Of a stretch of 64,000 bases of DNA, positions 6,501 to 28,800 are shown one piece after another (within the stretch, counting starts at the first letter, position 1; every line of letters begins with the position of its first letter). The position numbers are program-made. Origin of the DNA: Octopus vulgaris (lineage: Eukaryota); assembly GCA_951406725.2 (NCBI GenBank), contig CATOCA020000001.1:5022001-5086000 (forward strand). Direction: 5' to 3'.

Positions 6501-9500
6501 TGAGATGATAAAAATATCTTCCACTGAAAACTGATGTTGCAACGAATGCTTTGTAAATCTAATTCAAATCACAAATATTTTGAACATCCATTCTTTTCTC
6601 ATATTTTACATGCATGTGTGTTTTTCATTCATACTTTACGTAGTGACTTAAATCTGTTTTATATCTTATATAATAAAATATATGTAAATGCAAACAGAAC
6701 CTTCGTGAAGAAGAAAAGGAAGCTTACAAACTGAAGAATGACAATTCAATCATCCTAAAAGAAACCGATTAGGGAAGGGTGAAAGCAGTCACGGACCAAA
6801 ACTACTATAAAGATAAAATATTGGAAACAGACTAATCCTGCTACAAGGAAGAACCAAGACACGCGGAGAAAGTAATAGTGAATACACTCAAAAGTCTGAT
6901 AAATGAATACCAACGTTCGTTCACAGATAAAGAGAAAGATTATTTATGCATCTCTCTAATGAAAGAGAGTAATTTCTATGGATCACCCAAGATCTGCGAA
7001 TGCTCCAAAATGCAAGGATCAGCATATAAAAATACTAAGACCTACTGACATCAAATTGAGACCAACAGTTGCTGGACCTTGAGCCCCAACACAACAACAG
7101 AGCCATCTTTTGGATATACTCCTCAAACCGTTATGCCCATTAATGGCCAGCTATACCCGAGACGATATGGATTTCATCAAACACATTCCACCCACTGTCC
7201 CAGAACGTACTATACTTAAAAGATTTGACTAATCTTTGTACAAATACATCACATTTTGGGCCTGGAAGCAATCAAACACTGGGTAGAAAAACATAGCGGA
7301 CGGATGGACGAACGCTTCAAAACGCATTTCCAAAGACACACGCCGGGAACTAGAAGACAACACCTTTAGATTCGATAATAAACTGTATCGACAGATAAAA
7401 GGACACCACTACGGGGACGAGGTTCACACACATACTCGCACCCAGAGGTAGATATACATATGTGTGTATATTTCTGAGTGTATATGTGTGTATGTGCTTA
7501 TATGTGCATACATGTGCGTGTATGTGTGTGGATGTGTGTGTTGGTACATAGAGAGGCGAAGCGGATACTCGAGGTTGTGCAAGTCAAGTAGGAAATAAAC
7601 ATGAAACGGCTGCCACATTAAGATATTCTTCTCCTCCTGCTTCTTCTTCTTCTTCTTCTTCTTCTTCTTCTTCTTCTTCTTCTTCTTCTTCTTCTTCGTT
7701 ATCTTTCTTCTTCTTTTTCTTCTTCGTTATCTTTCTTCTTTTTCTTCCTTTCATTCTGAAGTCACAGTGTTTGATATCGTATCACAAATATTTTCCATAT
7801 AATCTATTTTACTCTTTCTTTACTGCTATAGAGATCTGAGATGGAACAACATTTCAACCATCAAAGAAGGAGCATTCACGGGGCTTTCGAATTTAAAATA
7901 CTTGTAAGTTCGTTCAGTTTCTTGATACTATTTTCCGAAAGTAATAATTGATGCTGATATATAAGCTCACAAATGTATAAAATTTCAGACTGCGCCAAAC
8001 AAAATCAATTCAAATTTGTAGAATGAACACGATTTAGGAAGATACAAAGAGAATATGAGAGAGCGAGACAATGTGAAAGAAAGAGAGAGAATTTGAGAGA
8101 GAAAGTGAAATAATAGGAAAAATATAATGTTCCTTTATTGTAGTTGCTTTGTTTCAATTCGCATCTCAATAACTCATTTTTGTTCCCCAAATTTCAATGA
8201 TTTTGATATGAATTTGTATTAGAAATGGTAACGTTTGTGAGTTTACATGTTTGCATCAAATATTTTTAGCTGAAGTATATGTGTATGTTCATATATAAGT
8301 GTAGTTCTGTGTGAAATGTGACTATATTATTCCTTTATTTTATATTTTGCATCCTCCTCCATTTCTTATTTCAATATTCTCCTTCGTGTTTCGATATTAT
8401 CATTCAACTTCGAATTTTGTCATTCACTTCACGTTATTTATGTAATAGAGCAACTGAAGTGGAAGCGGAAAATATATATTCGAATAATATAGTCACATAC
8501 ATTCTATCTGTAAACCTGAAATACTTACTGTACTTGTAAGCTGGAATATTTGGCCTGATACAATTAAACTGCTGATATATTTCTTGTAAGCGTGTGTTTT
8601 CTAATATTCTTGTGACAATGAAGCGATATGAAATAAATAATCTCTCTCACCATATTTCCACAAGGGTGAGTGGGAATATGTGTGATGTGAGTGTGCATAC
8701 CGCATTCCGTCGTTGATACTATGAATATAAGAATGCGTATGAGTGCATTTGAATATGTTGATTTCTGATTCCGTATATTCCCTGATTTTTCAGCCATGTC
8801 TTCTCGCCCAAAATTTATCGATCTATCCTTGAATTATTTCCTGATATTTTGAGAACATTTTCAGTTTCGTCTTGAACGCCATGATTTTCAATGTATCTTC
8901 TTCTTCTTCTTCTTCTTCTTCTTCTTCTTCTTCTTCTTCTTCTTCTTCTTCTTCTTCTTCTTCTTTCTCCTTCTCCTTCTTCTTCTTCTTCTTCTTCTTC
9001 TTCTTCTCCTTCTTTTTCTACTTCTTCTTCTTTTTCTTCTTCTTCCTCTCCTCCTGCTCCTTCTCCTCCTTCGTTTTCTTCTCTTCTTTTTCTTCTTTTC
9101 CTTCTTCTTCTTCTCTTCTTTTCTTTTTCTTCTACTTCTACTCCTCCTACTCCTCTTCCTCTTCTAATTTCTTTCTTCTTCTTATTCTTCATTTTCTTCT
9201 TTAAATTCTCTTCCCCCTCCACTCCGCCCCTCCTCCTCATTTTTCTTCTTGTAATTCTCCTCCTCCCCTCCTCTCCTGCTCTTTTTTCTTCTTCTTCTTC
9301 TTCTTCTTCTTCTTCTTCTTCTTCTTCTTCTTCTCCTTCTCCTTATTCTTTTTCTTCTTCTCTCGCTTCAACATATTTCTTCTTCTTCTTCTCCTACATC
9401 CTCTTCTACTTTCAATTTTTTCAACTACTCCTCCTCCTCCTTCTTCCTCCTTCTCCTCCTCCTTCTTCTTCTTATTCTTCTTTTTTTCTTCTACTCCTAC

Positions 9501-25879: not shown

Positions 25880-28800
25880 TTCTTTTTCTTCTCCTTCTTC
25901 CGCCATTCCTCCTGCTCCTCCTCCTCTCCTTCTTTTTCTTTACTTCTTCTTCCTCTTCTTCTCCTTCTCCTTTTCTTCTTCTTCTTCTTCTTCTTCTTCT
26001 TCTTCTTCCTTCTTCTACTTTATTTTTGTCTCCTCCCCCTTCTCCTCCCTTCTACTTCTTCTTTTTCTTCCTCCTTTTTTAATCTTCATATCTTCTTATA
26101 CTCTACCCTCCACCTCCTCCTATTTTCCCCTCCCCTCCTGCATCTCCTCTTTTTCCTTCCCTGTCTTCATCCTTCTTTTCTCCCCTTCTCCTGCTCCTCC
26201 TCCTTCTTCTACTTCTCCTTGTCTATCTCCTTCTTTTATTTTTCCTTTTCTACTCCTTCTTTTTCTTCTTCTTTTCTCCTCCTCCTCCTCCTCTTTCTTT
26301 TCTTCTTCTCCTACTTCTTCTGCTCCTTCAACCTCCTCCTCTCCCTCCTCCTCCTTTTTCCTCCTCTTCTTTCTTCTTCTTATTCATCTTTTTTCCTTCT
26401 TCTTCTTTCTCATCCTCATCCTATTCTTCTTCCTCTTCTTCTTGTACTTCTCATTTCTCTTCTCCTTCTTTTTCTTCCTCTTCTTCTTCTCCTTCTACTT
26501 CTCCTCCCCGTCTTCCTCCTTCTTTTTCTTATTCTTCTCTTTCATCTTTATTTTGCTATATAATTTCTTCTTCTTCTTGTTCTTCTTCTTCTTCTTCTCT
26601 TTGTACTTCTTCATCCTTCTCTCCACCTAATTCTTTCTTCTTCTGTAGTCTTGTTGTTTTGTTATTTCTTCTCCTCCTACATCCTCCTTCTTTTCTTCTT
26701 TTCTTCTTTTTCTTCGACGTCTTTTTCTTCTTCCTTTCTTCTTCTTCTTCTTCTTCTTCTTCTTCTTCTCTTCTTCTTCTTCTTCTTCTTCTTCTTCTTC
26801 TTCTTCTTCTCCCTTTTTCTTTATTCTTCTTGTAATTCTTCTTCTTCACTCCCCTCATCCTCATCCTTTTTCTTCTTTTTCTTCCTTAATTCTACTTCTC
26901 TACTTATTCATCTACTTCTCCTCCTCCTCCTTCTTCTTCTTCTTGTCTTCTTTCTTTTTATTTTCTTCTTCTTCTTCTTTTCTCCTTCTTCATTTCCTTC
27001 TTCTTTTTCATGCTTCTTCTTCTTCTACTTCTTCTTCTTCTTCTTCTTCTTGTTGTTTCTCTTCTACTTCTTCTTTTTCTCCTCCTCTACTTCCTCTTCT
27101 TGTTCTTCTTCTTCGTCTTCTTCTTCTTCTTTTCTTCTTCTATTTCTTCTTCTTCTTCTTCTTCTTTTTCTTCTTCTTCTTCTTCTTCTTCTTCTTTTCT
27201 TCTTCTATTTCTTCTCCTTCTGCTTCTTTTTCTTCTTCTTCTTCTTCTTCTTCTTCTTTTTTCTTCTTCTTTTTCTTCTTCTTCTTATTCTCCTCCTTAT
27301 TCTCCTTCTGATTCTTCTTCTTCTTCTTCTTCTTCTTCTTCTTCTGTCTATGTTAGCACTGAGGACATCCTCAATAAAATGAGTATTTTTGGTCACTCCA
27401 AGTTCTTCACATGTTGTGTAGTGGACACTAAGGACTTGATTCCTCTACCCATCTATTGACATCGATTTTGCTGGAGTATAATGTAATGAGATTGTCTGTG
27501 AAATGTGAAGTGAGGTCAACACGCGTGATCCGTGTCTCGTTCTTAGACTATATATTCTACCCCGCCAGATCACAGATTCTTAGACCACCCACCATCACTT
27601 CAGCAGTAAATAAATACACCAATGAGCGCTGGTGTGGCTTGACCCTACCCACCCAACTCCCTGAGAACAACAATTAGGAGAAAGGAATGATTGCACAGGC
27701 AGTAGGAGCTAGCGTAAGAACCACCTTGAAGAACCACAGACTAAAGTATCACTAGTTTAGTTTAGTTTAATTTTTTGTCTCAAAAAGCAAAAGCAAGGCC
27801 ATGTAGGGGACAGGGCGTTATGTACAGGGAGGGTGGTCATACAAAGAGTTCAGGCTATTTCTGGTCAAGAGAGACTTTGAACCGAGCGGTCGTCGGCATC
27901 TTCACTATCTCGTCCGGCAGCTTATTCCACGGATCCGCAACCCGGACGGAGAAAGCCCCTCACCTTCGATTGAGATGAAATCGTCGTAGATAGAGCTTTT
28001 CGGAGTGACCCTGCAGCCGACGCTCTGGAGCAGGGTGAAGAACAGCTCTTTCGATAGGTTTACACTTTCCGCTTATGATGTAGTGAGCAAGAATGAGATC
28101 ACCACGGCGTCGTCGTTTTTCGAGAGAACAAAGGTCGAGCGTCTTCGGCCTTCCTTCATAAGACAAATGCTTGAAACTATACATGTAAGTTCAAGGTGCA
28201 GCCATTTGTGTCGGTGTATCTGGAGATATTGCCGGCCTCTTCATGACCTGGTGGATCAGAAAACCTAAGCAATCCTTGGCAAAACAGTCCACAACTCTTC
28301 TAATTTACTGTAGGTATATATATGGCATTAATATCACAGTTAAGACCAGCTCTAGTAACGGTAATGTAGAAACAGAGAGGAACATAATGGAGAGCATCCA
28401 GCAAGTAGCCAACTCCATCCACCAAAGTATCAAGGTGACTACAGATTATCCCACCTGGCACCCCAACATTTGACTCCCCGTCCTTGTTACTGAACTTCAC
28501 TTAGTGACTGTGAACAACAGAGTGCAGCTCTTCCACTCCTATTACATGATTTAATTAGTAATTCAGTTCTCAACCTAATTAATTGCATCGTTTTGGCAAT
28601 GATGATCGAGATGTAAGCTACATTTCGAGCTAAAATAATTGGAAATTGATTCTTTAAAATATATATTTCAAAGTTTTCGAGGTAAAAAATGGCAGCGTAA
28701 GGCAAAAAAGTGACTTTGAATCAAAATATCTCAGTTATTTCCAAAGGAAATGTGTAGATTAATCAAATTTAAAAGAATGTCTTCATGGGGAAGACTCTTT

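Follow-up and report, generated by a model that had tools for sequence, protein, structure and literature searches.

The variable lymphocyte receptors (VLRs) of lampreys and hagfish are put together in somatic cells, where donor cassettes that are not spliced complete a germline gene that is itself incomplete, and in the genes of the Slit, LRIG, and LGR receptors, 72-nt symmetric exons each encode one leucine-rich repeat (LRR), with repeats and introns that are old and dissimilar. Lineage-specific expansion of recognition molecules, among them protocadherins and G protein-coupled receptors (GPCRs), is a known feature of cephalopods. In the ROCO genes of the brown alga Ectocarpus, Zambounis et al. 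2012 (PMC3341825) describe each LRR as one 72-nt, 24-residue exon; exons have been duplicated and shuffled, some have been inactivated, and positively selected sites lie on the concave face. In the fungal het-d/het-e (NWD) genes, which encode WD repeats, Paoletti et al. 2007 (PMC1805685) describe concerted evolution within and between loci and four hypervariable surface positions. Within the octopuses, Ritschard et al. 2019 (PMC6408891) describe a “group 3” of adhesion GPCRs, an octopus-restricted expansion of co-localized genes with GPS and seven-transmembrane (7TM) domains, in which 5 of 22 sequences carry LRRs and for which expression is reported in axial nerve cord, suckers, and skin. The present study concerns a tandem array of single-LRR exons in Octopus vulgaris, contained in a 64,000-nt stretch of assembly GCA_951406725.2 (contig CATOCA020000001.1, positions 5,022,001 to 5,086,000 of the forward strand), which we call the window and number from its first letter. 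Bioinformatic analysis suggests that the window holds the 5′ half of an octopus gene that belongs to a lineage-specific family of LRR-bearing adhesion GPCRs and is closest to Octopus sinensis; as a whole, we consider this the best explanation, at somewhat better than an even chance. With the same slender preponderance, we favor an origin of the array by germline tandem exon duplication accompanied by intron homogenization, with the diversity of the binding face kept or exchanged. The closest mechanistic precedents are analogues from other kingdoms of life, the brown-alga ROCO LRR exons and the fungal WD-repeat genes.

The array spans 7626-27345 on the + strand, which is markedly pyrimidine-rich across this interval, and consists of seven tandem units of 2309-3478 nt with one LRR exon each. 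A blastn search with unit 1 as the query found exactly seven copies in the window, the other six being 95.7-98.1% identical to it, and all seven LRR-exon motif matches fall on the + strand, with none on the - strand. The exons, or cassettes, lie at 7832-7903 (cassette 1), 10141-10211 (cassette 2), 13065-13136 (cassette 3), 16543-16614 (cassette 4), 19316-19387 (cassette 5), 21996-22065 (cassette 6), and 24714-24785 (cassette 7), all on the + strand, and they share a layout in which a pyrimidine run and an AG acceptor are followed by 72 nt and then by GTAAGT. Acceptor and donor are intact in all seven (14 splice sites), and neither the 24 nt before the exon nor the 24 nt after it vary among the units. 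Base 1 of each exon completes a Leu codon opened in the preceding exon, all cassettes being phase-symmetric, and each cassette encodes LRR positions 5-24 of one repeat, then positions 1-3 of the next, together with the split Leu codon. Because the exon boundary falls between LRR positions 3 and 5, each β-strand row is built from two neighboring exons. The LxxLxLxxNxL core and its 24-residue period are present in all seven exons. Five of the seven are in frame, at 72 nt; cassette 2 (71 nt) is put out of frame by a 1-nt deletion in its position-7 codon, and cassette 6 (70 nt) by two 1-nt deletions, in runs of T and A. Searched singly, the five in-frame exons match Pfam LRR_8 with E values of 3e-5 to 5.4e-4 (4.7e-5 for cassette 1), under the 27-bit cut-off, because each contains one 24-residue repeat only. 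A first-pass annotation of this stretch had described seven units of 2.3-3.5 kb with one LRR exon apiece, near-identical splice sites, and a set of residues that differ among the copies, and blastn and exon mapping agree with it on all of these points. Across units 1-7, the residues are D, D, Y, N, Y, Y, A at position 5; RW, ?W, GA, WK, FK, YE, YE at positions 7-8; N, N, S, N, K, N, N at position 10; and Y, T, E, R, V, G, E at position 3.

The same annotation described near-identical introns of about 990 nt, which is accurate for the unique part of each intron and not for the full introns, which measure 2.2-3.4 kb because each also contains a tract of 1161-2330 nt that is 91-94% pyrimidine. 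Tandem Repeats Finder reports these tracts as seven long TCT-like arrays (1.2-2.3 kb) and adds one short array at 7626-7747, a TTC/TCT tract of 122 nt and 96% pyrimidine on the + strand that forms the 5′ edge of the array; seven unique blocks of about 1150 nt are interposed between the tracts. The unique intron blocks lie on the + strand at 7904-8895 (unit 1), 10212-11202, 13137-14128, and 16615-17605 (units 2-4), and 19388-20378, 22066-23056, and 24786-25768 (units 5-7). Pyrimidine tracts 1-6, all on the + strand and 91-94% C+T, lie at 8896-10056, 11203-12980, 14129-16458, 17606-19231, 20379-21911, and 23057-24629, and the last tract, at 25769-27345 on the + strand, forms the 3′ edge of the array. 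Tracts 1-6 have collinear landmark 24-mers in common (17-289 per pair) although their lengths differ by as much as 1.2 kb; the last one has none in common with any of the other six (6/6 comparisons) and may be the original tract at the array edge. The array thus opens inside a short pyrimidine tract and closes at the end of the last long one, and these edges, together with the homology of tracts 1-6, would fit unequal exchange. A regular-expression scan of six frames found no LRR exons beyond the seven, its remaining matches being chance matches in low-complexity sequence, and a search of the whole window against Rfam returned no RNA-family match, so the conservation of the introns is not explained by a known RNA gene. 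Each intron also contains a block of ~80 nt that is 81-82% purine and lies 121-138 nt past the donor (8036-8115 in unit 1). For unit 2, a duplex of -46 to -48 kcal/mol is predicted between this block and either flanking pyrimidine tract, as computed without a shuffled control, compared with -38 to -42 for an adjacent overlapping window and about -30 or weaker for all other unique-intron windows; such a block could bind splicing factors or cause exons to be looped out.

In its exon anatomy, the array resembles the Ectocarpus ROCO genes, in which 72-nt symmetric single-LRR exons likewise stand in tandem with broken copies interspersed, here those of 71 and 70 nt. The ROCO product, in contrast, is a cytoplasmic ROC-COR GTPase of a brown alga, whereas the carrier in octopus belongs to an animal surface receptor family, and near-identical introns with kilobase-long pyrimidine tracts, as found in the octopus array, are not described for ROCO in the available portions of Zambounis et al. 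(PMC3341825). The array is therefore best regarded as an analogue, rather than a member, of the ROCO type.

The seven units were aligned over 1147 columns, comprising 72 of exon, 83 of upstream intron, and 992 of downstream intron. The exon has 22 variable columns out of 72, whereas the intron has 76 out of 1075, of which 5 (out of 83) lie upstream and 71 (out of 992) downstream (Fisher p = 1.8e-8). Averaged over the 21 pairs, the pairwise difference amounts to 0.154 for the exon and 0.0267 for the intron, and the ratio of the two ranges from 2.8 to 13.3. When a 72-column window is slid along the intron, none of its 920 placements attains the exon value, and the highest reaches 0.080. By thirds of the exon, the difference is 0.245, 0.075, and 0.144, and it is 0.0 in the 24-nt flanks, so that the region of high divergence has sharp edges. 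Described by proportions of nonsynonymous (pN) and synonymous (pS) differences, the codons at LRR positions 3, 5, 7, 8, and 10 have a pN of 0.49 and a pS of 0.14 (pN/pS 3.4), and the other 18, or scaffold, codons have a pN of 0.05 and a pS of 0.19 (pN/pS 0.27). That the variable codons diverge faster than the neighboring introns, as had been proposed, is borne out, with a pN of 0.49 against an intron value of 0.027. The excess extends to silent sites, however: 5 of 18 silent third positions of the scaffold are variable, a higher proportion than the 76 in 1075 of the intron (p = 0.008), and the scaffold pS of 0.19 is about 7-fold the intron value of 0.027. Moreover, 3 of the 10 gap columns fall in the exon, though the exon makes up 72 of the 1147 columns. 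The five intact cassettes contain no substitution-type stop codons. Since the silent scaffold sites are unlike the introns, a young array under positive selection alone is insufficient to account for the pattern.

The same hypervariability is found throughout the relatives of the gene. With the exons of the window queried singly, the first coding exon was matched by 23 of 26 candidates, 21 of them named by species (9 from O. sinensis and 12 from O. vulgaris); in 5 of the 23 relatives, all from O. sinensis and on four different contigs, it is 100% identical over 63 residues. A cysteine-rich exon was matched by 38 of 38 candidates, the named ones all being from O. sinensis, O. vulgaris, or O. 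bimaculoides, and among the 46 candidates for an unspliced 58-residue reading frame around cassette 4, two are O. vulgaris proteins named adhesion GPCR G6-like. The relative P0014 (1091 residues), which has all of the window exons in common with this gene, contains LRR_8, GPS (1.1e-10), and 7tm_2 (6.6e-34) domains, and against solved structures its GPS-7TM part matches ADGRG2 (2e-48) as well as ADGRL3 and ADGRG6. In the relatives, Pfam LRR_8 matches range from 1.6e-76 to 2.5e-106, and their Pfam domains are LRR, GPS, and 7tm_2 only, with no ROC-COR GTPase. The source organism, provisionally read as a cephalopod in the first-pass annotation, is an octopus, and we infer that the family corresponds to group 3 of Ritschard et al. 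The trees of that study were based on the 7TM region and revealed branch-level positive selection with no selected sites, and cassette-exon arrays and hypervariable positions, found in the family described here, are not described in the available portions of the paper (PMC6408891).

The LRR regions of the 23 relatives were cut into 24-residue, exon-registered pieces, which yielded 103 unique pieces: 62 of type A, with the scaffold of the window; 20 of type B, with a second scaffold; and 21 others, comprising terminal LRR, LRRCT, and read-through pieces and one type A-like cassette excluded by the position-19 filter. In type A (n = 62), the entropy at positions 5, 7, 8, and 3 is 2.81, 3.25, 3.06, and 2.67 bits, respectively, with 1.4-1.9 bits at positions 2, 10, 12, and 18 and no more than 0.92 at the other 16; in type B (n = 20), positions 3, 5, 7, and 8 reach 2.2-2.9 bits and all others at most 1.05. 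The intact position 7-8 dipeptides of the window, RW, GA, WK, FK, and YE, occur elsewhere in 2, 4, 2, 1, and 4 of the 62 type A cassettes, their other carriers being at other loci or in O. vulgaris. A uniform scaffold with four hypervariable positions and a repeat number that varies among members is reminiscent of the fungal NWD genes; as described in the available portions of Paoletti et al. (PMC1805685), however, those encode WD40 repeats within one exon of an intracellular allorecognition protein, with repeat-induced point mutation (RIP) as the proposed mutator and no splicing involved. In the protein models of the relatives, 1 to 13 cassettes are joined in series, and two pairs of models from the same contig (P0006/P0007 and P0018/P0019) differ by whole cassettes only, which fits alternative inclusion. 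Two further O. vulgaris models are of note here. P0010, named MIB2-like, fuses the signal peptide, LRRNT, and six cassettes of the family to an ankyrin-repeat C terminus and is either a chimeric annotation or a cassette array captured by another gene; P0016 reads several LRR cassettes in the wrong frame, which indicates that out-of-frame cassettes occur at other loci or assemblies too.

The structural placement of the variable positions was assessed on an AlphaFold model of the relative P0006, built with 17 family sequences and with the LRR register mapped by hand. In its LRR region, the block-mean predicted local distance difference test score (pLDDT) is about 88-98 to about residue 270 and 76-90 in the last two LRRs, and at the level of secondary structure the predicted strands occupy LRR positions 3-5 with a period of 24 residues. 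LRR strands at such positions form the concave ligand face. The model therefore agrees with the earlier placement of the variable sites on concave-face strands, and the variable codons are predicted to be those of the β-strand, concave-face positions. The P0006 model resembles the ectodomains of LINGO-1, LRIG1, chondroadherin, LRRTM2, LGR4/5, and the Nogo receptor. The octopus protein probably has an LRR fold similar to that of LRIG1 and LGR4/5, while differing from them in the near identity of its tandem units. Of the first-pass suggestion of a VLR-like recognition receptor, the part that stands is membership in a receptor family, that of the octopus adhesion GPCRs; the VLR-like system does not.

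The exons and introns of the array appear to have had different histories, and it is here that one rival history has to be weighed, in which the tandem copies arose very recently and have since diverged solely through rapid positive selection acting on new point mutations in the binding face. Such a history would account for introns that are 97% alike next to variable codons with a pN of 0.49 (against 0.027 in the intron), for the many multi-nucleotide codon changes, and for a scaffold held under constraint at a pN/pS of 0.27. It would not account for silent scaffold sites whose divergence is about 7-fold that of the introns, or for the genealogies, which conflict between exon and intron. The introns of units 1 and 7 are closer than those of any other pair, with 10 differences in 1068, yet their exons differ at 9 of 72 sites (Poisson 4e-8); exons are most alike in units 6 and 7, whose introns are not the most similar. 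In the four-gamete test, 121 of 276 informative site pairs fail in the intron, with a minimum number of recombination events (Rmin) of 11, and 7 of 15 pairs fail in the exon. In addition, the five intact position 7-8 dipeptides are present elsewhere, and so were probably not invented in this array. We therefore regard a history of recent duplication and selection alone as unlikely, and the earlier proposal that an exon more diverged than its introns bespeaks selection alone is not supported, given the silent scaffold sites, the gaps, the mosaic introns, and the common dipeptides. The mosaic introns, taken together with dipeptides common to other loci, argue for ongoing exchange among copies, and the overall pattern speaks as much for intron homogenization and cassette exchange as for fast substitution. 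Homogenization of the introns at the DNA level is established within this array. The data point to a process in which exchange homogenizes the introns while the exon, with its most variable codons at both ends, retains or imports diversity: old cassette types may have been kept by selection against homogenizing conversions, or the array may be young and its exons may have received short patches from cassettes at other loci.

A second alternative is that the locus is a decaying pseudogene in which the exon variation reflects relaxed constraint. It can draw on five frameshifting 1-nt deletions in coding exons, on the lack of a matching protein model, and on the concentration of gaps in the exon. 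Neutral decay, though, would neither outpace the intron nor spare the scaffold (pN 0.05), all 14 splice sites are intact, and the five intact cassettes are free of substitution-type stops. An equal positional pattern is present, furthermore, in 82 cassettes of intact annotated relatives. The locus could have died recently, but this would leave the pattern unexplained, and we consider decay a very improbable source of the variation. Still less credence attaches to an assembly artefact, whether by inflation of a smaller array or by the stitching of alleles or paralogues across low-complexity tracts. Kilobase-long tracts of this kind are hard to assemble, and the five homopolymer-type deletions suggest an imperfect consensus; yet the seven exons and the seven intron copies are all mutually distinct, the tracts vary in length but retain their collinear landmarks, and arrays of similar size are present in relatives from two species. 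The VLR-like somatic assembly or targeted hypermutation of cassettes, to which the candidate VLR-like system of the first-pass annotation alludes, seems to us the least probable mechanism of all. Its appeal lies in a shared ectodomain plan, in which variable 24-residue LRRs stand between putative LRRNT and LRRCT caps and diversity falls on the concave strands (positions 3, 5, 7, and 8); a VLR is also among the PDB sequence matches of P0014. In contrast to VLR donor cassettes, those in octopus are spliceable exons of a complete gene, with canonical splice sites and a single orientation and phase, placed between a complete LRRNT exon and an LRRCT exon. Moreover, the diversity observed is that of germline sequence, and no fields of donor cassettes without splice sites were seen in the 64 kb.

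The same anatomy invites readings based on splicing. Mutually exclusive splicing as in Dscam, in which each mRNA would contain one of the seven cassettes, would suit tandem, similar, symmetric exons with conserved introns, and the purine-rich block in each intron could pair with the pyrimidine tracts; it is, on the other hand, highly improbable given that the protein models of relatives, which are models rather than RNA, hold 1-13 cassettes in series. A further proposal is that the octopus receptor family constitutes a combinatorial recognition code, in which cassettes would be included in cell-specific subsets and the junctions between them would make new surface rows. The CU tracts and the purine block could then serve as a splicing switch, acting through pyrimidine-tract-binding proteins or through RNA pairing that loops exons out. 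We regard such a code as doubtful.

Under the explanation that we favor, germline duplication and exchange, one 72-nt phase-symmetric single-LRR exon would have been multiplied to seven tandem copies, the likely route being unequal exchange inside the kilobase-long pyrimidine tracts of each intron. The introns would be near-identical because young copies are still exchanging sequence (concerted evolution), and four or five concave-face codons would be held different by diversity-favoring selection, by short exon segments derived from cassettes at paralogous loci, or by both. Expression is predicted to proceed by ordinary splicing, with each included cassette adding one more turn to the LRR solenoid, and because each strand of the binding face comes from two neighboring exons, skipping or adding cassettes would alter both its length and its surface. 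The predicted product is a surface receptor whose ligand-binding face varies among paralogues and perhaps among isoforms. Several observations weigh against this explanation. No database protein bears the cassettes of this window, and a protein model of the locus was not found. The window contains no GPS or 7TM exon, and five relatives gave no match (E <= 1e-3) in the 19 kb that remain past 45189. Coding exons contain five 1-nt deletions (one in cassette 2, two in cassette 6, and two in the LRRCT exon), three or more of which fall within short homopolymer runs, so that the locus is either a recently inactivated copy or pseudogene, or its assembly is wrong at homopolymers; the positional pattern itself is not explained by decay, since neither the scaffold nor any of the 14 splice sites is disrupted. 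As they come from seven short recombining sequences, the pN/pS figures serve as description rather than as a site-model test, and the silent-site excess depends on five sites. The correlation between exon and intron distance matrices is weak and non-significant (Mantel r = 0.37, p = 0.086). The whole-cassette differences between P0006 and P0007 and between P0018 and P0019 could reflect annotation versions rather than splicing. On balance, the first-pass interpretation is partly supported: the hypervariable receptor face is real and family-wide, but it is better attributed to germline exon duplication and exchange than to a VLR-like system.

The gene that carries the array was modeled by tblastn of P0001, P0002, and five other relatives onto the window, and all of its exons lie on the + strand. 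The first coding exon (3758-3968; start codon at 3778), aligned to P0001 and P0002, encodes a signal peptide and an LRRNT-like cysteine cluster, and closes with 2 nt of a split Leu codon followed by GTAAGT; its Pfam LRRNT match (E = 6.2e-4, 19.8 bits) is under the curated cut-off of 25.8. Downstream of the array are a 72-nt terminal LRR exon (29886-29957), which has the phase of the cassettes and a different scaffold, and the LRRCT exon (33680-33835), both detectable only via the relatives and missed by the regular-expression scan. Aligned to five relatives, the LRRCT exon reads in three successive frames and meets a stop codon in the frame of entry, as would follow from two 1-nt deletions; for its last part, a Pfam match was not found. 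In several O. vulgaris models, an upstream alternative acceptor at 33629 (33629-33679) lengthens the link from the last LRR to the LRRCT by 17 residues, and the window retains this acceptor and an open frame. In the intron that separates the last LRR exon from the LRRCT exon, a (TCA)n unit is repeated 167 times in tandem, with 86% matches (32184-32687). A ten-cysteine module follows in two exons (about 38734-38826 and 40802-40990), with a weak likeness to Ly6/uPAR (Pfam UPAR_LY6_2, E = 0.27, below cut-off) and no match for its exons in a PDB sequence search. Three such modules stand in tandem after the LRRCT in P0017 and two in P0021, so module duplication in the family is not confined to LRRs. 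Three further coding exons common to the relatives were placed by tblastn at about 41935-42021, 43074-43127, and 45034-45189, two of which have no Pfam match, and the gene probably runs on past the end of the window. Runs of 100 N lie at 969-1068 and 51069-51168, the second where further exons might be expected, and tandem duplications at 54968-55403 and 56031-56859 (periods of 186 and 397 nt) look like dispersed, SINE-like repeats and gave no match in Rfam.

A literature search found no description of such arrays in cephalopods or in an animal GPCR, and cephalopod LRR cassettes are not mentioned in the available portions of a 2026 review of immune diversification (PMC13428168). The locus provides a clean case of introns homogenized while the 72 nt between them stay diverse, and it offers a concrete starting point for finding the ligands of these receptors in suckers, nerve cord, or blood cells. 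If the combinatorial code were true, it would give the neurons of arms and suckers, or immune cells, a diversity like that of Dscam or the protocadherins, carried on an LRR-bearing GPCR. Collectively, these analyses suggest that one octopus-specific family of adhesion GPCRs may vary its ligand-binding face through the multiplication and exchange of exons that each encode one repeat.

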